From a virus (taxonomy: Duplodnaviria; Heunggongvirae; Uroviricota; Caudoviricetes): DNA of 64,000 nt. A program made the position numbers and the translations under genes. This document shows positions 19,456 through 57,365 of the stretch, in pieces. The notes beneath the pieces are model-generated. The model made no database searches. It was not told where the DNA came from and saw only the letters and a program-made list of their open reading frames with translations. Position 1 is the first letter of the stretch, and each line of letters opens with the position of its first letter. The stretch covers positions 19,467 through 83,466 of the IMG/VR virus record IMGVR_UViG_3300010430_000005. One strand, written 5' to 3'.

Positions 19456-19503
19456 CGCCGTAGTGTGTCAATGTTAAAACCGTGTTACAAAAGGAGACGT
19501 AAC

Positions 19504-26854: not shown

Positions 26855-29095
26855 ATGAAACACTTAGATGAATCTTTGGATGAAATATATCCAATACAAC
26901 GACAAGAATCCAAAATATCTCATATATTTGACCATTGGTCTTTTGATGTTGAGAATGGGCAAGAACACGCCGTTAGATTCGTTAAGGGCCAAAATGGACC
27001 AAAAACTTCTAGAATTGTCTTTGGGGTTAAAAGAGGCAAAAAGATTGTTTCGAAAATCGAAAGTGTGCCAAACATTAGGAAGTATTTAGCTACTGTTATG
27101 CGTGCGGTAGAGACAGCTTTAGAAAATCCGACAAAAAAGGTTAAGGGCAGGATAGATGGTTTTGAGGTCAACGTGCCGCAAAAAGCATTTGATATTCTTG
27201 GTGATAGGATGATACGCATCTTGAGTAAGAGGCTCAGGGCAAGATTTAATGTGGCGGATAAATACACCGAGATGAAAGAGGATGGTTTTTCTTGCATTTT
27301 TGTTTGGAAAAAATCCAAACAATTTTCGGCAGTATTTCAAGAGTTAGATAAATCGGACATTGATGTTATGACCGAATTAGGTGACGTTGCGGGCATCGCG
27401 TCTAAAAAACACACGGAACATATGACCGATACATCTTCGGATAGGAGTCCTCAAGATGCTATCTCTTCAGTATCTTCGACTGCTTCAGCAGATTCGGAAA
27501 TCGATTTCGAAACAAACACTAAACAAAAAAGCGAAACAGATGTTGTTATAGATAAGAAGTCTGTAGTTTATAGTATGGGCGGGAAAGATATACGTAAAAA
27601 ACTATCTCAACAGGAAATAGAAAACAAAGTCAAGCGTCTGGCGATTTTGTCTGGCATTACCTCTTTCTATCATAGCAAAGAAATTTTTACGGATGTGCCG
27701 GTGTACGGGCCCGACGACATATCGTCTCTTATAGCCTCGGGTGGCGAAATATATATGGATTTCCCTAAACTTATATATTCTTTGATGTATAAAATAAAAG
27801 GTGTCTACACTGATGATATAATGTGGGGAAGCGACTATGCGTATTTAAGTGATGCTATAAAAAAAGCTACAGGTAATTATATAGATGTTAAGAAAGATGT
27901 GCAAGACATAATCGAAAAGAAGTTGCCTTCAGATTATGTTGTGGAAATGGCTTTGAATGTAGACAATATAAACAAAACGTTTATTGACAGGTATGGTGTA
28001 TCTGCTACAGATATAGTTAATGCTATGAAAGAAATGGATCCTAAGGGGTATAAGCATAAAAATCTAGAATTGAATAGTTCATCTTTTGTTAGTGGCATAG
28101 AAGACACGAAACAGGCTATTTTAGACGCCCTAGCTTCATCTGATACGCTGGAGACATCTGAGATGTACAAATTTGAAGAATCGATTGACGGTAAGCGAAT
28201 GATTAGAGGCAAGAATTATACCTTCGAAGACGTTCCTGCTAATCATTATTTGCAATCTTTAATACGACAAGCAAAAGAATTACCGCCTGAAGAATACCTA
28301 GAGATACAAAAGGTATTGCCCGAACATCTAAAAGATTATGTTATTTCTGATGATCTCGAATATTTTGAGACAATGATGGTTTCCGGCTGGACTATTTCTG
28401 GCGGTAATGTTGTGCAGACATTGGCGCATAGATATGCTAGTGAGGTAGGAGTTAATGCAGAATTGGGCGAATTTTGGAACTCGTCGAGTGAGGATTTTTC
28501 AAAAGAAAACGTAAGCAAAGCATATGATATTATGGCCGATAAGATCGCTGGCAATTTCGAAAGTATCTACGGAAAAACACAATCTTTCTATAAGAATAAA
28601 ATGAATAAAAAGTACGAGACTGCCAAAATCAAGTTATATAGAGGAATCGGCCAGAAAGACGTAGGTACTTATACTCCTGGTTCTTTAGAGTCTTGGACAT
28701 CTGTAGTATCTACGGCTAAAAAATTCGCTAAAATGATGTCCGATGCTGATAATGAAGGTACAATACTTTATGCTGAAGTGCCTATACAGCACATATTTGG
28801 CTCTTACGAATCGTTTTATGAAACTTGGCCCAACGAACAAGATCTGAAAGGCAAAAAAGAGTTTATAGTTATGGGCGGCACTTTTGCTACGACTCCTTTA
28901 TACTTATATGATCCTAGCACAAAAGAGAAGGTGTCTACATTGAACTTTAAAGAATGGATTGAATTGAAAGAGTCTAAGGAAACAAAATCAATTAAAGTGG
29001 TAACACCTTCCGATGATGGTTTTGATCCTAATGATCCTAAAGCTGCTTTTGGTAACGATCCGAAAGAAGAAAAAATCGACAAGAGAGAAGAATAG
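26855..29095 (+). CDS. large (746 aa) protein with possible C-terminal ADP-ribosyltransferase (R-S-E, Alt-like) domain
   Basis: RBS acaggagacaccATG. The C-terminal region has LYRG (R), about 20 aa later ESWTSVVST (S-T-S), and about 45 aa later YETWPNEQDLKGKKEF (candidate Q/ExE ARTT loop). Late promoter upstream, as for T4 alt. Confidence 0.35.
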   Translation: MKHLDESLDEIYPIQRQESKISHIFDHWSFDVENGQEHAVRFVKGQNGPKTSRIVFGVKRGKKIVSKIESVPNIRKYLATVMRAVETALENPTKKVKGRIDGFEVNVPQKAFDILGDRMIRILSKRLRARFNVADKYTEMKEDGFSCIFVWKKSKQFSAVFQELDKSDIDVMTELGDVAGIASKKHTEHMTDTSSDRSPQDAISSVSSTASADSEIDFETNTKQKSETDVVIDKKSVVYSMGGKDIRKKLSQQEIENKVKRLAILSGITSFYHSKEIFTDVPVYGPDDISSLIASGGEIYMDFPKLIYSLMYKIKGVYTDDIMWGSDYAYLSDAIKKATGNYIDVKKDVQDIIEKKLPSDYVVEMALNVDNINKTFIDRYGVSATDIVNAMKEMDPKGYKHKNLELNSSSFVSGIEDTKQAILDALASSDTLETSEMYKFEESIDGKRMIRGKNYTFEDVPANHYLQSLIRQAKELPPEEYLEIQKVLPEHLKDYVISDDLEYFETMMVSGWTISGGNVVQTLAHRYASEVGVNAELGEFWNSSSEDFSKENVSKAYDIMADKIAGNFESIYGKTQSFYKNKMNKKYETAKIKLYRGIGQKDVGTYTPGSLESWTSVVSTAKKFAKMMSDADNEGTILYAEVPIQHIFGSYESFYETWPNEQDLKGKKEFIVMGGTFATTPLYLYDPSTKEKVSTLNFKEWIELKESKETKSIKVVTPSDDGFDPNDPKAAFGNDPKEEKIDKREE

Positions 29096-29152: not shown

Positions 29153-29776
29153 ATGATTGTCATGCAGGGTAAATTGCCGCGTAAAGTTAGTGTAGCATGT
29201 AGCGGGGGTGTCGATAGTATGGCCGTCGTCGACTTCCTAAAACGAAATCATAATGTGACTTTGTTGTTTTTTCATCACGGCACAGAAACCAGCGAAAAAG
29301 CATACCAATTCCTTAAATCGTATTCTTCAGCTAACGGCGTAGAATTAATATCAGAACGCATTAAAGATACTTCTGTTCCTAAAGATCAGAGTCAAGAGGA
29401 ATATTGGCGTAATTGTCGATATAAGTTTTTCCTTAACCGCGACGAGCCCGTTGTAACATGCCACCACCTTGACGATTGTGTCGAGACTTGGGTTTGGAGC
29501 TCTTTGAATGGAAACGGCAAGATCATTCCTTACAATAACCGTAACGTTATTAGGCCCTTTAGGGTCAATAAAAAGTCTGAATTTGTTTCTTGGGCCAAAC
29601 GAAATGATGTGCCGTGGGTAGAGGACGAGAGCAACAAAGATACAAAATATACTCGAAATTTTATTAGACACGAAATGATGCCAAAAGTTTTGACTGTTAA
29701 TCCCGGCATCCACAAAACTATTGCTAGAAAGGTGAGAAAAGATTATGGGAAATTATGTAGTAAAACCTCCTGTTGA
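29153..29776 (+). CDS. PP-loop (SGGxDS) ATP-pyrophosphatase family protein (TilS/QueC-like N-type ATPase)
   Basis: VACSGGVDSMAVVDFL PP-loop motif near the N-terminus. About 207 aa. Confidence 0.55.
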   Translation: MIVMQGKLPRKVSVACSGGVDSMAVVDFLKRNHNVTLLFFHHGTETSEKAYQFLKSYSSANGVELISERIKDTSVPKDQSQEEYWRNCRYKFFLNRDEPVVTCHHLDDCVETWVWSSLNGNGKIIPYNNRNVIRPFRVNKKSEFVSWAKRNDVPWVEDESNKDTKYTRNFIRHEMMPKVLTVNPGIHKTIARKVRKDYGKLCSKTSC

Positions 29777-34336: not shown

Positions 34337-34810
34337 ATGACTAAACTTTTCAATGACTGCGAATTCAACGAGTTTGGTGGCGATCTTATTTCGATGGCTC
34401 TTGTTGCAGAAAATGGGCAAGAGTTTTATGAGGTGCTGAATCTAGAGAATAATTACAATTATGGCCCTTGGGTGTCGAAAAACGTCGTCCCGATTTTGAA
34501 CAAAGACCCCATCATTAAAGATTTGTTCACTAATAGACTTTGGCACTTCCTGAATCAATGGAAAGAAGTCCATATTATCGCCGATTGGCCTGACGACATT
34601 AAATATTTCTGCATGTCTCTTGTTACAGGCCCAGGAAGAGCAATCAACACACCTCCGAAAATGACTATGCAAATAGATAGGGAGTTATCGGCAGAAACAA
34701 GTGCTATTCCGCATAACGCTCTTGAGGATGCTAGGGCAATTAAACGAAGCTGGGAGCGCCGTGAGAAAGAGATGATCGGTTACGGGATAAAAGGTGTTGA
34801 CTTTGTGTAG
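34337..34810 (+). CDS. DEDD-family (DnaQ-like) 3'-5' exonuclease
   Basis: The N-terminal acidic motif region (DCEFNEFGGDLISMA) and C-terminal PHNALEDARA (Exo III H-x4-D) fit the DEDDh fold. Confidence 0.5.
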   Translation: MTKLFNDCEFNEFGGDLISMALVAENGQEFYEVLNLENNYNYGPWVSKNVVPILNKDPIIKDLFTNRLWHFLNQWKEVHIIADWPDDIKYFCMSLVTGPGRAINTPPKMTMQIDRELSAETSAIPHNALEDARAIKRSWERREKEMIGYGIKGVDFV

Positions 34811-35506: not shown

Positions 35507-35959
35507 TTGGCGAATTGGCAAAGGATGGAAATGATGAAGTTTGAGAAACAAGAAATTGTAGAATATGATGTTGATAAAATTCATTGCATGATGGGTGTCC
35601 GGTATTGGGAAGATGCTCGTGTGAACGGCGAAGAAGATACTGATGGCGACAAAATCCCACTTCGTAAAGGAGATACTTGGGATATCACTATTGATCTTGA
35701 AAGCGGAACAATTGAAAATTGGACAAAAGGTGTTGTCGCGTCTGTTCACTACAAAGTTTGTGATGCTGGTGTATATCGACTCATTTCAACTGATGGTAAT
35801 GTTGTGGTAGAGCGAGATGGTTATGTACCAAGTTTTCTTTGCCCTAATAAAAACGGGTATGGCGATTACGTAATCATGGACATTGACGAAAATGGAAATA
35901 TTGGTGAGTGGTATATTTCATCTGGTGATTTGGATGATTATTTTCAAAATGAGTATTGA
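35507..35959 (+). CDS. hypothetical protein
   Basis: 150-aa ORF. Confidence 0.4.
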   Translation: MANWQRMEMMKFEKQEIVEYDVDKIHCMMGVRYWEDARVNGEEDTDGDKIPLRKGDTWDITIDLESGTIENWTKGVVASVHYKVCDAGVYRLISTDGNVVVERDGYVPSFLCPNKNGYGDYVIMDIDENGNIGEWYISSGDLDDYFQNEY

Positions 35960-36429
35960 AGGATTCGTTTGGATATGTTATAAAGAGCACATTAAAAGGA
36001 GATTTAGACATGACTCGTGACGAATTCCAAAAAATAGTAGATGAAATAACTGGTGGGAAATATTACTCGCCAGAACGTAAGCGAAAAAACACAGGTATAC
36101 AAGGTCGTAAAGGTTATTACGGACCTACTATTGAACTAAAAGTAGAATGGATGACTGGTGGTGCTTGGGGTGGAAACTGTTGGGATGATTCGGACCCAAG
36201 TAGTTATTGCCCAGAACCTGACAAAGAACCAGAGTTAGAACACATAGATCAAATTTTGGAAAAGGTTGCCCCTACGATTGGGTTTATTCAATACAAGACT
36301 TTGATGCAAAAAGTTGAGTATGATACCAGAACTGAACTTGAATACTATGGAAACCATACCAGTTACGGTATCAAGAAAATTCTAATAGAAGATATTTGGG
36401 AATTTTTGCAGGAAAAGGGTTATGTATAG
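35956..36429 (+). CDS. hypothetical protein
   Basis: 157-aa ORF with ATGA overlap. Confidence 0.4.
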   Translation: MKDSFGYVIKSTLKGDLDMTRDEFQKIVDEITGGKYYSPERKRKNTGIQGRKGYYGPTIELKVEWMTGGAWGGNCWDDSDPSSYCPEPDKEPELEHIDQILEKVAPTIGFIQYKTLMQKVEYDTRTELEYYGNHTSYGIKKILIEDIWEFLQEKGYV

Positions 36430-36799
36430 TGACATAATATTGTGGGTTGGCCTACCTGGTTCGGGCAAAACCTACAATGCCCAAAAATACTGTGATATTG
36501 TCATTGATGATATCACTGACCTTTCGCAGTTACCATCCTCAGAAGAAATTAAAGGAAAGCGATTGGGTATCGCAGATGTAAACTTCTGCGACAAGAAAAT
36601 TCTTCACAAAGCAATATCAAAAATCTTGGAAATTTATCCAAGCGCAATGATTGACATATATTATTTTGAAAATGACGTCGACAAATGTCGTGCTAATGTG
36701 TTATATCGTAATGATGGTAGAAATGTAGAAGGAACCATTCTAAGATTTGAAAAAATATACGAACCGCCTAAGTGGGCGGCTAAAATATGGAGTGAATAA
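36422..36799 (+). CDS. P-loop kinase (polynucleotide 5'-kinase-like, stand-alone)
   Basis: Walker A VGLPGSGKTY at the N-terminus. 125 aa. Sits directly upstream of an RNA ligase. Confidence 0.45.
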   Translation: MYSDIILWVGLPGSGKTYNAQKYCDIVIDDITDLSQLPSSEEIKGKRLGIADVNFCDKKILHKAISKILEIYPSAMIDIYYFENDVDKCRANVLYRNDGRNVEGTILRFEKIYEPPKWAAKIWSE

Positions 36800-36800
36800 A

Positions 36801-37853
36801 ATGCTACTAACACGCGACGAATTCAGAAATAAAGTTTTTGAACGAGATAACCATCGTTGCGTGATATGTGGCGCAACTGAAAGTGATACTGTCAAACTTG
36901 ATGCACATCACATCATTGAACGCCGTTTGTGGTTGGATGGTGGCTATTATGTTGATAATGGGGCAACTCTTTGCGATAAAGGCGAAGATGGTTGTCACAT
37001 GAAAACAGAAATCACAACATTGTCAGTTGACGATATTCGCATTGCTGCCAACATTCAAAAACCTATCATACCAGAAGATATGTATGCAGACCACGTTTAT
37101 GACAAATGGGGTAATATCATATTGGGCAATGGAACCAGAACTAAGGGTCCGTTGTTTGGAGACGAATCTGTTCAAAAGGTTTTGTCGAAACATCCAAACT
37201 TTGAAAGTTTGTTTGTTGACTATGTGAAATATCCGAGAACTTATCACCTTCCATGGTCATTGGGTATTACGGATGATGATCGTATTATGCGTGATTTGTC
37301 TAATTTCGAAGGTAAGCGTGTTATTGTTACACGTAAAATGGATGGCGAAAATTTCACAGGATATAATGACTATAGTCATGCACGTTCTGTGGATGGACGC
37401 CACCATTATACCAGAGATTGGGCAAAGAATTTTTGGATGCAGCGTTCTTATGAATTGCCAAAAGGATGGCGTGTATGCGCTGAAAATCTCTATGCAGTCC
37501 ATTCAATTCGGTATGATGATCTTGACAGTTATCTTATGGGGTTTTCGATTTGGAATGATAAAAACGAATGCCTGTCTTGGGATGAAACAGTAGAATGGTT
37601 TCAACTTCTAGACATTCCTAGCGTTCCAGTCTTGTATGACGGTATCTTTGATGAAGAAAAGATCAAATCTCTTTATGATGTAAAGGAAGATTATGATAAT
37701 CATGAAGGGTATGTTATGCGAACTGCGGATGGGTTCAACTATGGAAATTTTAAAAATTGTGTTGCTAAATTCGTAAGACCAAATCACGTGCAATCGCAAA
37801 AGCACTGGTTTTATGGGAGAAGCGACCATGATGTAAATGGGATGAAAGAATGA
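36801..37853 (+). CDS. HNH-motif domain fused to Rnl2-like ATP-dependent RNA ligase
   Basis: RBS ggagtgaataaaATG. N-terminal HNH motif CVICG...LDAHHIIERRLW...NGATLC...CH. Nucleotidyltransferase motif I VTRKMDGENFTGY (compare Rnl2 KIHGTNF). Confidence 0.5.
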   Translation: MLLTRDEFRNKVFERDNHRCVICGATESDTVKLDAHHIIERRLWLDGGYYVDNGATLCDKGEDGCHMKTEITTLSVDDIRIAANIQKPIIPEDMYADHVYDKWGNIILGNGTRTKGPLFGDESVQKVLSKHPNFESLFVDYVKYPRTYHLPWSLGITDDDRIMRDLSNFEGKRVIVTRKMDGENFTGYNDYSHARSVDGRHHYTRDWAKNFWMQRSYELPKGWRVCAENLYAVHSIRYDDLDSYLMGFSIWNDKNECLSWDETVEWFQLLDIPSVPVLYDGIFDEEKIKSLYDVKEDYDNHEGYVMRTADGFNYGNFKNCVAKFVRPNHVQSQKHWFYGRSDHDVNGMKE

Positions 37854-38122
37854 GTATACATTTCAATTTCGACATAACAAATCCGTTTGTAAAAAAACAC
37901 TGCGGCAAAACCATTTTTTTCTTTGAACCAAAAGTATCTAAAAACAAGGCAATCTGCTTCCAGTTCGATGGATTTGATTGGAAGCAGATATTTGAAATTG
38001 GTTTTTGGTGGAGAGATAAAACTATGGGTCATTGGGGTATGAGTATAGAATTCGGACTTTTAGGGTTTTGGTTCAACTTAGACTTTTATGATATCAGACA
38101 TGTAGAGGAAGATGATGAATAG
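37850..38122 (+). CDS. hypothetical protein
   Basis: 90-aa ORF with ATGA overlap. Confidence 0.35.
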   Translation: MSIHFNFDITNPFVKKHCGKTIFFFEPKVSKNKAICFQFDGFDWKQIFEIGFWWRDKTMGHWGMSIEFGLLGFWFNLDFYDIRHVEEDDE

Positions 38123-38627
38123 AAAATATCTTGTATTTTTGGACATTGACGGTGTTTTTACATCGTCAAGAGTCCATTATGCACATAATGCAGAATATGG
38201 TATGTGGCATAGGTTTGATCCTGTTGCGGTCGATTTTTTGAATCGTATCCATGACACTTATCCTGTTGAATTTGTTCTAATGTCAACATGGAAAAATAAT
38301 ATAAAATATGATCATAAAATGATCGAACATTGGGTTCGTTCTGCATTTGCTAATAGTGGGTTTCGTGGAATGATTGCCAAACCATGGAAGGCTGATCCGG
38401 ACGATTTTGCGGTAATGAAGCGTTGGGATAGGGCACATGAAGTCAAAGATTATCTAGAAAACTTCGGAGAAGATGTAAAAGACTTCATCTTGTTTGATGA
38501 TAACGCATATCGTTTCAAGGAAATTCTTGGTAAAGGTAGACTTGTTAGAACCGATCCAGACAATGGATTGCTACATAAACATATGCTAAATGCTATGTCT
38601 ATCATGGGAACTTGGGTGGAGAAATGA
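38112..38627 (+). CDS. HAD-superfamily phosphatase (DxDG motif; Pnk-phosphatase-like)
   Basis: N-terminal LVFLDIDGVFTS matches HAD motif I DxDx(T/V). Motif IV-like FDDNAYR. Confidence 0.5.
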   Translation: MMNRKYLVFLDIDGVFTSSRVHYAHNAEYGMWHRFDPVAVDFLNRIHDTYPVEFVLMSTWKNNIKYDHKMIEHWVRSAFANSGFRGMIAKPWKADPDDFAVMKRWDRAHEVKDYLENFGEDVKDFILFDDNAYRFKEILGKGRLVRTDPDNGLLHKHMLNAMSIMGTWVEK

Positions 38628-38718
38628 AATAGACTGTCGGATTTTGAACATATTCGCAGTATGGCCCATTGCGGGAACAAACTTTTACTTTCTGTCTACG
38701 CAAAAAAGGAGAAAAATA

Positions 38719-39018
38719 ATGAAAAAGTTCTTGACAGCAGTTGCTATTTGTGTTACTCTGCCAACAATCGCACTAACAGAAACAGTTTATTACCCACAAG
38801 AATCTTGTGCAGAAATTGTTTCTCAAGAATATTCTACTGGTGGCGGTAATACGTCTTGGCAATATCTGGAAATCCTGTGTAAAGACAAAGATGGTAAATA
38901 TACTGGTTTTGTCGCTAGTTGGGGTTCTGTTGCAGGGTTTCTTGGCGCTGGTCGTTGGGATATGGTCGATCGTTTCGATTATGTTCCGTACAAAGGAAAA
39001 ACTCTGAAAGTAGAGTAA
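38719..39018 (+). CDS. small secreted protein
   Basis: RBS aaaaggagaaaaataATG. N-terminal signal peptide KKFLTAVAICVTLPTIALT. Confidence 0.45.
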   Translation: MKKFLTAVAICVTLPTIALTETVYYPQESCAEIVSQEYSTGGGNTSWQYLEILCKDKDGKYTGFVASWGSVAGFLGAGRWDMVDRFDYVPYKGKTLKVE

Positions 39019-39025
39019 AAAGTTC

Positions 39026-39054
39026 TTGACAAGCACATATACATGTAGTATAGT
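39026..39054 (+). promoter_or_regulatory. sigma70 consensus promoter TTGACA-17-TATAGT driving the tRNA-like RNA
   Basis: -35 at 39026-39031 and -10 at 39049-39054. Predicted TSS around 39061, 7 nt before the acceptor-like stem. Confidence 0.6.
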
Positions 39055-39067
39055 GCTTAAATAGTTT

Positions 39068-39187
39068 CCCGCTGTGGTGTAACGGTTAGCACACGTGCAC
39101 AAAGTCAATCCTGCAAAGGATTGTTACAGCAACAAAATTGCATATCATTGGAAGATCGTGGTCTAGGTTCGATTCCTAGCGGCGGGA
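39068..39187 (+). ncRNA. tRNA-like non-coding RNA, ~120 nt, non-canonical (candidate Y RNA, or intron/insert-containing tRNA)
   Basis: Acceptor-like stem CCCGCTG/CGGCGGG (one G-U pair). D-arm GTGT-AACGGTTAGC-ACAC. Canonical T-arm CTAGG-TTCGATT-CCTAG. Discriminator A with no encoded CCA. About 67 nt lie between the D- and T-arms instead of about 22-40, containing the hairpin CAATCC-TGCAAA-GGATTG, so no standard anticodon arm could be drawn by hand. Confidence 0.5.
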
Positions 39188-39261: not shown

Positions 39262-40686
39262 ATGAACACTTTTTCTAACGCAGTTGCTAATATCAAATCA
39301 AAAGAAATCTCACGCACCGAAAACGGTATGAAAGCTTTTGCTACTTCCGATTCTAAAGTTCTTGACCTATTTGGTAAGATCGGTTCTGGTCGCGGTCGTG
39401 ATATGTCTCGCGAATTTATGGCAGCACTTGGTGAAGATCAAGAACTTGCGATTCGTGTTCTCCTATGGGCACGTGATGTTCGTGGTGGTGCGGGTGAACG
39501 CGAAACTTTCCGTTCGCTACTAAAGGCGCTAGAAAACGGCAATCCGACACTTGCTGGTAAAATCATGCACCTAATCCCGGTTCTGGGTCGTTGGGATGAT
39601 CTGTTCGTGTATGAGGATGCTATCAACCGTAAAGCAGCACTTCGCATGTATGCAGATGCTCTTACGGACGGAAATGGTCTAGCCGCAAAATGGGCACCGC
39701 GTGAAAAGTCAACCAAGAAAGAACGTGCAGCAATGCTACGCAAATTCATGGGTCTTTCACCTAAGGAATATCGTAAACTCCTAGTCTCGAATACGAATGT
39801 TGTGGAGACTCAAATGTGCGCGAAGGACTGGGGAGGTATCGACTTTTCGAAAGTTCCTTCTCTAGCGTCTGCACGTTATCAAAAGGCATTTGGTCGTAAT
39901 GCGAGCGAGCAATATGCAGCATACATTCGTGAACTCCAAAAGCCTCAGGCAGAGCGCAATCCGAAAGTTAAAATTAATGCTGGTGCAGTATACCCATATG
40001 ATATTGTGAAGTCTCTATCAAAAGGTAATGCTGCTGTTGCGGATGCACAATTCGAAGCACTCCCAAACTATGTAGGTGATTCTAAAATCCTACCAATGGT
40101 TGATGTTTCGGGTTCTATGTATACTCCACTTGCTGGAAATACCAATGCACTTGAAGTTGCTATCTCACTAGGTCTGTATCTTTCTGACCGCACCAGTTCT
40201 GATTTTAAGGACATGTTCCTTACTTTCTCTGGTGAGTCAAAGATCGAAACCCTAAAAGGTAGTCTGTCACAGAAGTATAACCAACTTCGTCGTGCGGAAT
40301 GGGGAATGAACACTAACCTACACTCTGCGTTTGAGGAAATTCTTCGAGTTGCAAAGGACGGCAATGTCTCGCAAGAGAACATGCCAGACACTGTTCTTAT
40401 CCTTAGTGATATGCAGTTTGATCGTTGCGTTCGTCACGATGACAATGCTCTTGGCATGATTAAACGCAAATATGCAGAAGCGGGATACACTATGCCTTCT
40501 GTTGTATTCTGGAACCTAACTGCACGTGCTGATAACACACCAGTTAAAACTAACGACAAAGGCGTTGCCCTTGTTTCGGGTTTTAGTCCAGCGATCATGG
40601 CAACGGTTCTTGGTGCGGATCCTACGGAATTTACACCATATGCAATGATGCTAAACACTATCATGAGCGACCGTTACAATTTTTAA
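39262..40686 (+). CDS. rsr: Ro60-like protein (TROVE domain + C-terminal vWA/MIDAS domain)
   Basis: RBS aaaggagaatataagATG. N-terminal TROVE-like region (LFGKIGSGRGRD...IRVLLWARDVRGGAGER...LIPVLGRWDDL). vWA MIDAS motif MVDVSGSM with a downstream Ser/Thr/Asp series. Same architecture as bacterial Rsr. Confidence 0.65.
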   Translation: MNTFSNAVANIKSKEISRTENGMKAFATSDSKVLDLFGKIGSGRGRDMSREFMAALGEDQELAIRVLLWARDVRGGAGERETFRSLLKALENGNPTLAGKIMHLIPVLGRWDDLFVYEDAINRKAALRMYADALTDGNGLAAKWAPREKSTKKERAAMLRKFMGLSPKEYRKLLVSNTNVVETQMCAKDWGGIDFSKVPSLASARYQKAFGRNASEQYAAYIRELQKPQAERNPKVKINAGAVYPYDIVKSLSKGNAAVADAQFEALPNYVGDSKILPMVDVSGSMYTPLAGNTNALEVAISLGLYLSDRTSSDFKDMFLTFSGESKIETLKGSLSQKYNQLRRAEWGMNTNLHSAFEEILRVAKDGNVSQENMPDTVLILSDMQFDRCVRHDDNALGMIKRKYAEAGYTMPSVVFWNLTARADNTPVKTNDKGVALVSGFSPAIMATVLGADPTEFTPYAMMLNTIMSDRYNF

Positions 40687-47386: not shown

Positions 47387-48553
47387 ATGGGAAGTGAAAT
47401 TCATCGCAAATTGGCATCTATTCAGCGAATTGAAGAAGTTCGGGACATTGAAGGCGCAGATCTAATCCAAGCATACCGCGTTCTAGGTTGGTGGGTAGTT
47501 GATAAACGTGCTGCACATAAAGTAGGCGATCTCGTAGTATACATTTCTATTGATTCATGGGTGCCACATGAACTTGCACCTTTCTTGTCCAGTGGAAAAG
47601 AACCCCGCGAATACAACGGTGTGAAAGGTGAACGTCTTCGCACAATCAAACTTCGTGGACAGGTTTCGCAAGGATTGCTCATCAAAATTTCAGATATTCC
47701 TATTCACGTATTTGCCACTGAGAATGTAGATACTGGTGAAGTATATGCAATGGATGAAATCGTTTGGAATGAAGGAGACGATCTTACTCTTGATCTAAAC
47801 ATCCAAAAGTGGGAAGCACCAATTCCTGCACAACTTCAAGGACAAGCAAAAGGCACATTCCCTACCAGTCTTATTCCTAAGACTGACCAGGAACGCATTC
47901 AAAACTGCTTTGGTGCTATCCAAAAGCGTGATGGTCTTTTCTTGACTGAAAAGTTTTGGAATGAGGAATTGCAAGAAGTCCAAGAGCGTGATGTTGTTCT
48001 TCCAGAAGATTTCAAGAAGCCTACTTATGAGGTTACCATGAAACTTGATGGTAGCAGTATGACCATTTTCCGTTGGGAAGATGAACTTCGTGTTTGTAGT
48101 CGCAACATGGAACTGAAAATTAACGAAGAAAATGCCGATAACACTTTTGTTAAAATGGCATTGAAACTTGATGATTGCATCCCAGAAGGACTTGCTTTCC
48201 AAGGCGAACTTTGCGGCGAAGGAATCCAAGGCAACCGTGAAGGGTTTAAGGGGCATCACTTCTTTGTGTTTGATGTTTTCGACATAAAAGAACACAAATA
48301 CCTTTCGCCTTCCGAACGGCATGATATCATAAAAGACATGAATTCCATCATGGGATTGCCGTTCATCGACCATGTTCCTGTTCTTGGAACAGACTGGAAT
48401 GCACCTGAGAGTGTTGCAAAGGGTCTTGAACTGGCAGAAGGCCCAAGCATTAATCACAAGGTTCGCGAAGGTCTTGTGTGGAAATGCAATGAAGACCCGA
48501 GTTTCAGTTTCAAAACGATCAGCAACAAATTCTTGCTCAAAGGTGGGAATTGA
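47387..48553 (+). CDS. ATP-dependent RNA ligase-like nucleotidyltransferase (KxDG family)
   Basis: Motif I EVTMKLDGSSMTIFRW (compare Rnl1 KEDGS). N-terminal extension precedes the NTase domain. 388 aa. Confidence 0.45.
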   Translation: MGSEIHRKLASIQRIEEVRDIEGADLIQAYRVLGWWVVDKRAAHKVGDLVVYISIDSWVPHELAPFLSSGKEPREYNGVKGERLRTIKLRGQVSQGLLIKISDIPIHVFATENVDTGEVYAMDEIVWNEGDDLTLDLNIQKWEAPIPAQLQGQAKGTFPTSLIPKTDQERIQNCFGAIQKRDGLFLTEKFWNEELQEVQERDVVLPEDFKKPTYEVTMKLDGSSMTIFRWEDELRVCSRNMELKINEENADNTFVKMALKLDDCIPEGLAFQGELCGEGIQGNREGFKGHHFFVFDVFDIKEHKYLSPSERHDIIKDMNSIMGLPFIDHVPVLGTDWNAPESVAKGLELAEGPSINHKVREGLVWKCNEDPSFSFKTISNKFLLKGGN

Positions 48554-51291: not shown

Positions 51292-51513
51292 ATGTTGACT
51301 CAAGAAACTAAAAAACTGTTTGTTTCTTTCGCAAAAGATGCGCCGAACTGGAGCGGAACTCCTCTACTTGACATCACATCGGCCCAACGAGGCAATTTGT
51401 CCGACCTCAAGAAAAAGGGGCTGGTCGAAACATTTCGCGATGAAGGTTGCGATTGGGTTATCTTTACAAAGGCCGGTGAAGAGTTGGCGGCAGAATATGG
51501 TTATGAGGTGTGA
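51292..51513 (+). CDS. hypothetical protein
   Basis: RBS caaggagatacacgATG. Confidence 0.45.
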   Translation: MLTQETKKLFVSFAKDAPNWSGTPLLDITSAQRGNLSDLKKKGLVETFRDEGCDWVIFTKAGEELAAEYGYEV

Positions 51514-51514
51514 A

Positions 51515-51874
51515 ATGAATTATTTCTTGTTTATCGACGATGAACGAAACCCGGAAGATGTTACTTGGGCTCCACAGCGAGTCAAAGACCTATATAACAA
51601 TCGCAGTTGGGTTGTGTGTCGTAATCATTGCGATGTGATGAAAACAGTATCTAGCTTAGGTATGCCGACATTCGTTTCTTTCGATCACGACTTGGGCGAG
51701 GTCTCGAAAGACGGGTATTGGATTGCTAAAAAGTTAGTCGATACCGAGCTAAGTGGTCTGTTCAGTTTTCCTGGCGAGTTTGATTATTATGTCCACAGCA
51801 AGAACCCCATCGGCAAAGCAAATATCGAAATGTACCTTAATGGGTATATGACAACAAAATTAACAGTGACGTGA
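51515..51874 (+). CDS. hypothetical protein
   Basis: RBS gaggtgtgaaATG overlapping the previous stop. Confidence 0.4.
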   Translation: MNYFLFIDDERNPEDVTWAPQRVKDLYNNRSWVVCRNHCDVMKTVSSLGMPTFVSFDHDLGEVSKDGYWIAKKLVDTELSGLFSFPGEFDYYVHSKNPIGKANIEMYLNGYMTTKLTVT

Positions 51875-56534: not shown

Positions 56535-56567
56535 ATGAATTACACGAATCGAAAAGGAAACTTTGTT

Positions 56568-57365
56568 ATGAAAAAAGACGAATTCGGCGATCGTATGAAG
56601 CACTATGAACGAGCATACACAGATGTTCGTATCCCAATTGATGTGCCTCTTTGTGTTCGTATCGACGGCAAAGGATTCAGTAAATTCACCAAAGGATTTG
56701 CGAAACCGTTTGATAAAGATTTGACCCAAGCAATGATCGATACCACAAAGCATTTGGTTAAAGAGACCAATGCAAGTGTCGGTCATACACAATCAGATGA
56801 AATTACACTAATCTGGTTCCGACGTAGCGAAAAGCAAAGCGAACACATCTTTGGCGGCAAAGTATCCAAAATCAATAGTATTCTTGCTAGTATGGCGTCA
56901 GCAGCGTTCAATCACTATATTGCTAAGTATTCCCCCGACGCTTATGCGGGCAAGGGATTGGCTTATTTTGATTGTCGCGCATGGTCTGTTCCGAGCGATA
57001 TTGAAGCAAGTAATGTTCTGCTTTGGCGCATTCAGGATGCTAAAAAGAATAGTATCTCCTGTCACTATCGTTGGACACTTGGACATAGCAGTATGCACGG
57101 ACTCAACGGTAAGCAGATGATGGATAAGCTGAAATCAAGTGGTAATGACTGGGAACAGTTGCCAGCAAAATATCGATATGGCGTTTGTGTTCGTCGCAAG
57201 AACCGTATGGTTGAACTAGATGGCGAAACTCTTGCAAAGATTCCAGTTGACAAGCAACCAGAAAATGCTATAGTAACGAGAAGTGAATATGTTGAAGAAC
57301 GAGCAGATGAGTTTGTTAAGCGCAATCTCAAAACTCGGGTAAAATATGTCAAAGGAGAAAAATAA
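56568..57365 (+). CDS. Thg1-like protein (tRNA-His guanylyltransferase family; 3'-5' nucleotide addition)
   Basis: RBS aaaggaaactttgttATG. VRIDGKGFSKFTKGF matches the Thg1 core (VRxDGRxFxxF). Size fits (about 265 aa). Confidence 0.55.
   Translation: MKKDEFGDRMKHYERAYTDVRIPIDVPLCVRIDGKGFSKFTKGFAKPFDKDLTQAMIDTTKHLVKETNASVGHTQSDEITLIWFRRSEKQSEHIFGGKVSKINSILASMASAAFNHYIAKYSPDAYAGKGLAYFDCRAWSVPSDIEASNVLLWRIQDAKKNSISCHYRWTLGHSSMHGLNGKQMMDKLKSSGNDWEQLPAKYRYGVCVRRKNRMVELDGETLAKIPVDKQPENAIVTRSEYVEERADEFVKRNLKTRVKYVKGEK

Follow-up and report, generated by a model that had tools for sequence, protein, structure and literature searches.

Do neighbouring genes for a kinase, an RNA ligase and a phosphatase in a phage genome act together to mend broken RNA, or do they merely share a stretch of DNA? 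The question is raised by 64,000 nucleotides of a virus of the Caudoviricetes (positions 19,467 to 83,466 of IMG/VR record IMGVR_UViG_3300010430_000005), referred to here as the window. Positions 36010-38627 of the window carry, on the + strand and in this order, genes for a 139-amino-acid protein named KAD, a minimal kinase, an HNH-RNA ligase, a 90-amino-acid open reading frame (ORF) and a HAD phosphatase. On balance this run probably equips a large, jumbo-type phage with a kit for healing and sealing RNA ends, and the substrate that such a kit most likely mends is cut tRNA.

A preliminary description of the locus had named three consecutive genes, for a stand-alone P-loop kinase, an RNA ligase and a HAD phosphatase. 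All three genes and their motifs (GLPGSGKT, RKMDGENF and FLDIDGV, respectively) were located where it had placed them, and the three assignments withstood profile searches, with the catalytic residues conserved in alignments of homologues. The genes are not consecutive, as the 90-amino-acid ORF separates the ligase from the HAD gene, and the KAD gene also belongs to the unit, which comprises the following features.

36010..36429, + strand: kinase-associated protein KAD, 139 amino acids; an orphan family and the constant partner of the minimal kinase
36422..36799, + strand: minimal PNK-family P-loop kinase, 125 amino acids; identified by its Walker A motif, family profile, hhalign alignment and AlphaFold2 (AF2) model
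36801..37853, + strand: HNH nuclease-RNA ligase fusion, 350 amino acids; identified by Pfam, PHROG and orthologue alignment
37850..38122, + strand: 90-amino-acid ORF; overlaps the ligase stop by 4 nucleotides and the HAD start by 11 nucleotides
38112..38627, + strand: stand-alone HAD phosphatase of the HAD_SAK_2 ('Swiss-army-knife') family (PF18143), 171 amino acids

All sizeable ORFs between 35507 and 39018 lie closely packed on the + strand. The kinase ATG overlaps the KAD stop by 8 nucleotides and is preceded by a AGGAAAAGG stretch, and a gap of 1 nucleotide separates the kinase from the ligase. A promoter scan of 35569-39026 gave no strong site, and the sole + strand terminator-like site in that interval (36921-36942) is weak, G-T-rich and located inside the ligase gene. 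Because there is no strong internal promoter and just one weak terminator-like site, the run looks co-transcribed, and its genes also appear to be translationally coupled.

The kinase belongs to the polynucleotide kinase family

The Walker A motif, GLPGSGKT, occupies residues 10-17 of the kinase and is invariant in an alignment of 41 homologues. Invariant residues of the protein are G10, P12, G13, S14, G15, K16, D29, D30, C56, F82, R96, D98 and R100, and D52 is nearly invariant. As a single sequence the kinase scored 14.7 bits against Pfam AAA_33, below the cut-off of 27. When its family profile was searched against the PDB, the stand-alone RNA 5'-OH kinase of Rhizopus and related kinases (9d8a/9drz) were matched over the full length with E about 2e-6 (1.8e-6 for 9d8a, residues 3-115). 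Alignment of the same profile with residues 1-141 of T4 Pnk, the whole kinase domain, gave an hhalign probability of 95.5% (E 1.6e-8), with a deletion of ~30 residues between strands 2 and 3 of the phage protein.

The functional residues follow the same pattern. D29/D30 pair with the 'RDD' of T4 Pnk, D52 with 'SDTN' and R96/R100 with 'RNSKR', and D29-D30 also align with 'QDD' of the Mucorales kinase RazKIN, so the general-base aspartate after strand 2 is present. R96 aligns with Arg103 of RazKIN, and a lid arginine is likewise present. The T4 counterparts are Asp35 as the general base and Arg122 and Arg126 as the lid arginines, which touch the phosphates of the donor. The AF2 model of the kinase was confident (predicted local distance difference test score 93.9), and its chain stops soon after strand 5. 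The top Foldseek matches were the kinase domain of mammalian PNKP, PSTK, gluconokinase and C. thermocellum Pnkp, and adenylate and guanylate kinases were also among the matches. For a second Mucorales enzyme, MciKIN, Asp36 is reported to be essential (PMC11571804).

The comparison with T4 Pnk that the preliminary description had proposed thus bears out the relationship: the kinase aligns across the whole domain, and its model most resembles the kinase domains of PNKP and Pnkp. An interim verdict of 'not homologous to T4 Pnk', drawn from a PDB match limited to the P-loop, was overturned by the profile-profile alignment. The protein is a PNK-family kinase, homologous to the kinase domain of T4 Pnk, and is predicted to be a 5'-OH polynucleotide kinase. 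It has 143 close homologues, and 2029 representative clusters match the family profile, nearly all of them of 120-140 amino acids. A survey of domain fusions among the top 150 kinase representatives yielded ten longer proteins with P-loop matches only, and two members, P0335 and P0298, without a KAD domain.

The kinase has a constant partner

The kinase does not stand alone, as had been proposed. Neighbourhoods of relatives were taken from fetched loci of up to 20 kb (labelled L001 and so on; +/-5-10 kb for ligase loci), and a KAD homologue lies directly upstream of the kinase in 20/20 loci with the best-scoring kinase homologues (E <= 2.6e-23), usually with an overlap of 1-44 nucleotides. A few family members have no adjoining KAD, for example in Microcoleus phage My-WqHQDG. 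The mechanically defined KAD ORF begins at 35956, and its homologues begin at the methionine encoded at 36010. Two motifs, W..GG..GGxCW and EYYGN.T.Y, are invariant.

Searches with KAD returned no family match and no PDB fold match. When the KAD model was compared with viral models, one significant match was obtained, to gp242 of Bacillus phage G. This protein is a fusion in which residues 8-129 correspond to the minimal kinase (probability 97.5%, E 6e-12) and residues 180-278 to KAD (probability 93.4%, E 2.6e-7); it surfaced through the structure search and not through the survey of kinase representatives. Since the two are fused in gp242, the kinase and KAD act together.

Two genes upstream of gp242, gp240 of phage G is a 2H (LigT-type) phosphoesterase. 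A 2H cyclic phosphodiesterase and a kinase make up the healing pair of Trl1-type tRNA ligases, according to PMC11571804. Together, gp240-gp242 resemble an RNA-healing cluster that annotation has missed, and phage G is in culture (JN638751; locus L123, 19389-21371). The existing annotation of gp240 is 'RNA ligase', and gp241 is a Cys-rich protein of 148 amino acids.

Other arrangements of the pair were also observed. One locus (L031, 9134-10390) carries two tandem KAD paralogues upstream of a single kinase gene. The pair is also found in a bacterial replicon of 709 kb, CP016463 of Bosea sp. RAC05 (L121, 7567-8396), where the region has many repeated DUF8359 genes, methyltransferases and AbiEii and possibly represents a giant mobile element, integrated or plasmid-like.

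Two other identities were considered for KAD and rejected. It is not a 2H phosphoesterase, having one H-T-S only, the histidine of which is replaced in distant homologues. The small upstream gene that overlaps a P-loop kinase gene also recalls an epsilon/zeta-like toxin-antitoxin pair; this was rejected because of the phage G fusion, the size of the kinase, which is half that of zeta toxin, and a sub-threshold Zeta_toxin match (20.3 bits against 22.3).

The RNA ligase is fused to an HNH nuclease

The ligase ORF spans 36747-37853, and the start is almost certainly the ATG at 36801, one base past the kinase stop, because homologues begin MLLTRDEF. The extra N-terminal domain noted in the preliminary description is present and is an HNH nuclease (approximately residues 1-90); it is followed by a conserved linker (approximately 91-140) and the nucleotidyltransferase domain (approximately 140-345). 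The protein matched Pfam RNA_ligase PF09414 with E 2.4e-26 (93.3 bits, cut-off 27), and phrog_24030, 'RNA ligase', covers the entire fusion (E 1.5e-136). The N-terminus scored just under the Pfam HNH cut-off (E 6e-4; 20.4 bits against 21.4) and matched thirteen HNH PHROGs with E 4.5e-8 to 7e-4.

Orthologues share 70-74% identity with the protein in IMG/VR contigs and 50-60% in the phages RsoM2USA, SCTP-2, CcrBL9 and ME3. Across ten orthologues of 51-76% identity, C20, C23, H36, H37, N53, C58 and H66 of the HNH domain are invariant. The same ten retain, in the ligase domain, K179-M-D181-G182 (motif I, with Lys179 within RKMDGENF in the numbering of the 350-residue protein), E228 (AEN, motif III), E302-G303-x-V-x-R (motif IV) and K323-x-V-R326 (motif V). 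As both catalytic sets are kept in the ten orthologues, both domains are under selection. The protein is a member of the ATP-dependent RNA ligase family, with a predicted sealing activity.

Its architecture is neither that of Rnl2 nor that of Rnl5. The C-terminal helical domain of Rnl2 is absent, as the protein ends ~25 residues past motif V, and no Rnl2 structure in the PDB was matched at E <= 1. The N-terminal OB domain of the Rnl5 type is also absent, and the HNH domain stands in its place. Among solved structures the profile of the fusion weakly touches just the Naegleria ligase (E 0.04). HNH-less versions exist within the same ligase clade. One IMG/VR orthologue (L022, 628-1143 and 2627-3097) is interrupted at residue 184 by an insert of ~1.5 kb, possibly an intron, intein or mobile element.

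Two further readings give the HNH domain a part. HNH nuclease chemistry leaves 3'-OH and 5'-phosphate ends, and the fusion might be a self-contained 'trim-and-seal' enzyme in which the HNH domain trims nucleotides that are damaged or blocked from the ends of a broken RNA or RNA-DNA junction, making ends that its own ligase joins, with the kinase-KAD pair and HAD as a parallel route. We judge this quite unlikely. If true, coupling of a nuclease with a ligase would constitute a novel way of repairing RNA, instead of the suggested attack on the DNA of competitors.

The other reading, which we hold to be very unlikely, directs the whole set at DNA ends, as PNKP-like nick repair or anti-restriction, with the kinase and phosphatase cleaning 5'-OH and 3'-phosphate nicks, the HNH domain cutting DNA and the ligase sealing it. 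The kinase's top structural matches are to PNKP of mammals, which repairs DNA; DNA is also accepted by T4 Pnk and the Mucorales kinases (PMC11571804); and HNH domains are typically DNases, an attack on DNA being what Iyer et al. propose for the HNH domain (PMC7824862). Against this reading, the ligase domain falls in family PF09414 (RNA_ligase), genes for RNA-directed enzymes (Thg1 and Rnl5) lie near it in other phages, and HAD is associated with tRNA arrays.

The HAD phosphatase is associated with phage tRNA genes

The HAD protein matched PF18143 with E 2.8e-19 (70.3 bits, cut-off 27.5). Its 278 homologues, many of them 65-85% identical, keep D11 and D13 (motif I, within FLDIDGV), S58 (motif II), R107, and D129 and D130 (motif IV), even in a relative of 24% identity; judging by its position, R107 probably represents motif III. 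The resemblance to the phosphatase domain of T4 Pnk is at the level of motifs only (hhalign probability 15.5%, confined to motifs I-II), no PNK3P or HAD_PNKP match in Pfam was found at E <= 0.1, and the searches returned no solved relative. The idea of a 'split Pnk' therefore holds for the kinase and fails for the phosphatase, which is of the SAK_2 type. HAD is predicted to be a polynucleotide 3'- (or 2'-) phosphatase.

Close HAD orthologues usually lie inside phage tRNA arrays: in 21/31 loci one or more tRNA genes, and as many as 15, were found within 3 kb. By the same measure, tRNA genes adjoin the kinase pair in 5/20 loci, the ligase in 2/14 and distant HAD-like genes in 3/36. A Ro-like DUF2828/vWA gene lies 1-5 kb downstream of the HAD orthologue in 7 loci. 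Four loci from related phage contigs (L062, L073, L074 and L075) carry very large tRNA arrays, with more than 10 genes per 20 kb.

The 90-amino-acid ORF before HAD gave no family match in Pfam or PHROG. Weak relatives were found upstream of the HAD gene in locus L018 (pairwise E 8e-6) and in L058 (tblastn E 3e-6), and the ORF is probably a real gene.

A putative healing and sealing pathway

Further genes of RNA-repair type, as the preliminary description had noted, are present elsewhere in the window: a second RNA ligase and a Thg1-like protein, to which a cRec protein can be added.

47387..48553, + strand: second RNA ligase, of the Rnl5 type, with N-terminal OB and nucleotidyltransferase domains (PHA02142 OB-fold, RNA_ligase)
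51320..51874, + strand: cRec (cyclic-phosphate-processing receiver) domain protein (PF20274, E 1.8e-17)
56535..57365, + strand: Thg1-like 3'-5' nucleotidyltransferase (PF04446, E 1.1e-30)

The second ligase matched the Naegleria gruberi RNA ligase 5cot with E 6e-64 and has no more than a remote relationship to the HNH-ligase (hhalign E 0.12). The cRec protein is a candidate opener of 2',3'-cyclic phosphate ends, the role proposed for this domain in PMC7824862. This repertoire had been called unusually rich; it matches the set described for jumbo phages in section 3.4.9 of that paper.

The family memberships, the conserved catalytic residues, the pairing of the kinase with KAD and the genomic associations are established. 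The pathway that we infer, including its substrates, the order of its steps, its biological trigger and any part played by the HNH domain, would run as follows. A ribonuclease of the host or of a competitor would cut tRNA or other RNA, leaving 5'-OH and 2',3'-cyclic or 3'-phosphate ends. The cyclic end would be opened, possibly by the cRec protein (51320) or by HAD itself, and the HAD_SAK_2 phosphatase would then strip the phosphate through a phospho-enzyme intermediate on Asp11. The minimal kinase, in complex with KAD, would phosphorylate the 5'-OH, KAD probably providing an acceptor- or nucleotide-binding surface that the truncated kinase is missing. Finally the ligase domain, adenylylated on Lys179, would join the 3'-OH to the 5'-phosphate. 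By analogy with the T4 precedent, the kit might serve against anticodon nucleases.

Partial juxtapositions recur in relatives

The kinase-ligase-HAD run is no conserved operon. The three genes, which had been described as a module, are usually dispersed in the relatives fetched, and partial juxtapositions recur in differing orders. The order ligase, KAD, kinase is found in a distant phage (L032), and elsewhere (L036) the ligase has the KAD-kinase pair at a distance of 6 kb and a ligase of the Rnl5 type at 1.5 kb. HAD is located 2 kb downstream of the ligase in L018. A Thg1 gene (E 3.4e-25) directly follows an HNH-ligase orthologue in L017, and NADAR and AAA_33 kinase genes flank an HNH-less orthologue in L021. 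In phage RsoM2USA a P-loop kinase of 143 amino acids and APS_kinase/AAA_33 type is encoded 2 kb upstream of the HNH-ligase (L001, 2105-2894). The gene for this kinase overlaps that for a protein of 124 amino acids with two H-x-T motifs, 2H-like by eye and without a Pfam match; both are annotated 'hypothetical'.

One locus joins the kinase to HAD directly. In L013 (5788-6516) a truncated kinase, comprising the C-terminal 44 residues with 75% identity, ends exactly at the HAD start. Either the kinase-HAD adjacency is ancestral and the ligase and 90-amino-acid ORF were inserted in the lineage of the window, or a deletion occurred in L013; both fit equally well.

Several observations weigh against an RNA-repair kit. 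The kinase has no equivalent of Arg38 of T4 Pnk, which lies three residues past the general base and binds the acceptor phosphate, the corresponding segment reading D-D-I/P-x-x with no conserved arginine; KAD may supply this function. P-loop kinases with an aspartate after strand 2 include small-molecule kinases, and gluconokinase is among the fold matches. At 15 ligase loci neither a KAD-paired kinase-family gene nor a HAD gene was found within 10 kb, except for the HAD gene of L018, and only weak kinase-profile matches (E 1e-4 to 1e-5) were obtained in L001, L023 and L024. Most kinase and HAD loci are without a ligase. When 150 ORFs next to distant HAD-like genes were compared with Pfam, RNA-repair families were not enriched (two AAA_33, one Thg1 and one HAD_PNKP). 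No canonical tRNA gene was found in the window. The healing and sealing pathway does not account for the conserved HNH domain, and the substrates assigned to the minimal-kinase, KAD, HNH-ligase and stand-alone SAK_2 HAD families are predictions from sequence.

In a rival reading, independent accessory genes have been brought together by chance in a hypervariable region, with the kinase-KAD pair and HAD acting on small molecules in nucleotide or nucleoside metabolism and only the ligase acting on RNA. This is unlikely, though it has a real chance of being right. Gene order around the kinase, ligase and HAD varies from phage to phage; homologues of the kinase and of HAD often have genes for thymidine kinase, dCMP deaminase, MazG-like, Metallophos and glutaredoxin proteins nearby; the fold matches extend beyond gluconokinase to adenylate and guanylate kinases; and the Bosea copy of the KAD-kinase pair lies near NDK and ADK genes. 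Yet the best sequence relatives of the kinase are polynucleotide kinases across the full domain, HAD is a SAK_2 protein found within tRNA arrays in two thirds of its close orthologue loci, the ligase adjoins the KAD-kinase pair again, in another order, in the distant phage, and the kinase-KAD fusion of phage G is encoded close to a 2H phosphoesterase. The nucleotide-metabolism neighbours do not argue against RNA repair, because the proven tRNA-repair genes of T4 sit in a similar neighbourhood: rnlA and pseT share one orientation, are separated by 1.4 kb and have nrd, td and cd genes around them.

A tRNA-like RNA and a Ro-like gene follow the run

The HAD gene is followed by a small, secreted-looking ORF and then by three further features.

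39026-39054, + strand: sigma-70-like promoter, the best of the region (TTGACA-17-TATAGT, 11/12 positions)
39068-39187, + strand: tRNA-like RNA, 120 nucleotides (Rfam tRNA model 39.6 bits, gathering threshold 29, E 3.9e-7)
39262..40686, + strand: Ro-like protein with helical repeats and a vWA domain (DUF2828/DUF7788/VWA_2; phrog_850 'RNA-binding protein')

The tRNA-like RNA begins 14 nucleotides past the promoter and ends 75 nucleotides before the Ro-like gene. It keeps the acceptor, D and T arms, and an insertion of 61 nucleotides replaces the anticodon arm; the z-score of its fold is just -1.8. It was overlooked both by ARAGORN and by the whole-window Rfam scan at gathering thresholds, and it matched no Y-RNA family in Rfam. 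A blastn search of relatives gave generic T-arm matches only, and one tRNA-like gene of 114 nucleotides in L075 is possibly related. The Ro-like protein has a vWA domain; it gave no TROVE match at E <= 0.1 and no sequence match to solved Ro60/Rsr structures. Of the Ro60/Y-RNA locus that had been placed 1 kb downstream of the run, a vWA protein and an RNA are thus present, but the gene begins ~0.6 kb downstream and matches DUF2828/DUF7788/VWA, not TROVE, and the RNA is tRNA-like.

This arrangement could point to a different role for HAD, one that serves mainly the tRNA-like RNA, the Ro-like vWA protein and the tRNA set of the phage in tRNA maturation or quality control, not in break repair, so that its place beside the ligase would be secondary. 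HAD orthologues are embedded in tRNA arrays in 21/31 loci, with dozens of tRNAs and a transfer-messenger RNA (tmRNA) in L062 and L073-L075; the Ro-like gene recurs downstream of HAD in 7 loci; and in the window the promoter-driven tRNA-like RNA, with the Ro-like gene behind it, follows HAD within 0.5 kb. Proximity of HAD to the ligase was seen in relatives just in L018/L081, one contig fetched twice, and as a weak ligase-profile match (E 3.5e-6) in L108. We nevertheless consider such a role rather unlikely as the main one. In the window HAD begins within the end of the ORF that precedes it in the ligase run, whereas the tRNA-like RNA has its own promoter. A link between HAD and Ro is, moreover, compatible with repair, as Ro/Y-RNA particles are connected with RNA repair and decay in literature cited by PMC7824862. 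A healing and sealing kit is the preferred reading of the run.

The phage and other features of the window

No DNA nearly identical to the window was found among 50,697 phage records; therefore the phage is taken to be uncultured and known only from metagenome contigs. The window is ~40% G+C, with nearly all coding on the + strand, and also encodes ribonucleotide reductase and a ClpB-like ATPase. Protein relatives of the HNH-ligase occur in the jumbo phages Ralstonia RsoM2USA, Salicola SCTP-2, Caulobacter CcrBL9 and its relatives, and Acinetobacter ME3, as well as in huge metagenomic phages, and relatives of the kinase and HAD occur in metagenome contigs of 100-500 kb. PADLOC defence models gave no match in the window. 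A permuted tmRNA of alphaproteobacterial type in L062 (12515-12886) is a hint that phages of this group may infect alphaproteobacteria.

Two further genes upstream of the run encode possible RNA-directed enzymes, a PP-loop ATPase at 29153-29776 (ATP_bind_3, TilS-like, E 1e-31) and a protein at 34337-34810 with a weak match to the Rv2179c-like 3'-5' exoribonuclease (E 0.003). In L005 a homologue of the PP-loop gene is separated from the kinase pair by 3 kb. Directly after the ribonucleotide reductase genes, positions 26855-29095 encode a protein of 746 amino acids with only a weak match to DRAT, an ADP-ribosyltransferase (E 0.003).

Comparison with known systems

Phage T4 (Pnk/PseT and Rnl1, and also Rnl2) brings together the same three chemistries, a 5'-kinase, a 3'-phosphatase and an ATP-dependent RNA ligase, encoded as in the window by co-oriented, close genes near those for ribonucleotide reductase. 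Unlike T4, the window has its kinase and phosphatase as separate proteins, and the phosphatase is a SAK_2 HAD, not of the Pnk type. The kinase has ~30 fewer residues between strands 2 and 3, no counterpart of Arg38 and a partner protein of 139 amino acids, while the ligase carries an HNH domain and is without the C-terminal domains of Rnl1 and Rnl2.

Among solved structures, the best sequence match of the kinase is to the Mucorales RNA 5'-OH kinases MciKIN and RazKIN (PDB 9D8A), with the Trl1 kinase domain; P-loop, DD motif and lid arginine all align. These stand-alone kinases have a demonstrated tRNA-splicing kinase activity, and RazKIN binds the guanine of GTP with a C-terminal G-loop and helix (PMC11571804). 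The phage kinase, ending soon after strand 5, is without these two elements. The Rnl5 enzymes of Naegleria gruberi and Deinococcus radiodurans belong to the same Pfam family as the HNH-ligase, PF09414, but have the N-terminal OB domain that it lacks. In the bacterial Pnkp-Hen1 system, with Clostridium thermocellum Pnkp, a kinase and a phosphatase for healing are likewise united with a ligase for sealing, and that ligase needs a partner protein. There, in contrast to the window, the phosphatase is a calcineurin-type metallophosphoesterase, the activities reside in a single polypeptide and a methyltransferase, Hen1, serves as the partner; domains of these kinds were not found in the run. Bacterial Rsr (Ro60) with YrlA likewise places a vWA helical-repeat protein beside a promoter-driven RNA bearing a tRNA-like module of acceptor, D and T arms, although the window protein matches DUF2828/DUF7788, not TROVE, and its RNA no Rfam Y-RNA family.

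The closest published parallel is a set of jumbo-phage components presented by Iyer et al. 2021 (PMC7824862, section 3.4.9), citing Burroughs & Aravind 2016. It comprises ATP-dependent RNA ligases, including 'Rnl2-family' members with an N-terminal HNH domain, polynucleotide kinases, stand-alone Swiss-army-knife HADs, cRec, ROT/TROVE and Thg1; 'Rnl2 family' has a broader sense there than the T4 RnlB type. The components are read in that section as counter-measures to tRNA-cleaving defences. Since jumbo-phage kits against such defences are already published, the gain here lies in components, not in the concept. The section makes no mention of a kinase of ~125 amino acids with a partner domain, or of HAD among tRNA arrays beside a Ro-like gene. 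Measured against that source, three features appear to be new: the minimal kinase and its accessory domain, which are two proteins here and one in phage G; the tRNA-array and Ro-like setting of HAD; and this tight arrangement.

If the proposed reading is true, this phage lineage mends RNA breaks with parts unlike those of the T4 paradigm. The kinase would be the smallest known of the PNK type, made functional by a separate or fused accessory domain without known fold relative or annotation, the phosphatase would come from a family whose function is so far a prediction, and ligase and nuclease would be permanently joined in one protein. The 2029 clusters matching the kinase profile indicate that the kinase-KAD pair is widespread, and it would provide a compact, easily expressed system for the study of acceptor recognition by polynucleotide kinases. 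The position of HAD among phage tRNA genes beside a Ro-like protein would link the tRNA supply of the phage with RNA quality control and repair, a connection that is genetically testable. The run in the window is a further instance of the predicted jumbo-phage RNA-repair toolkit, and the two-part design of its kinase is the new element.

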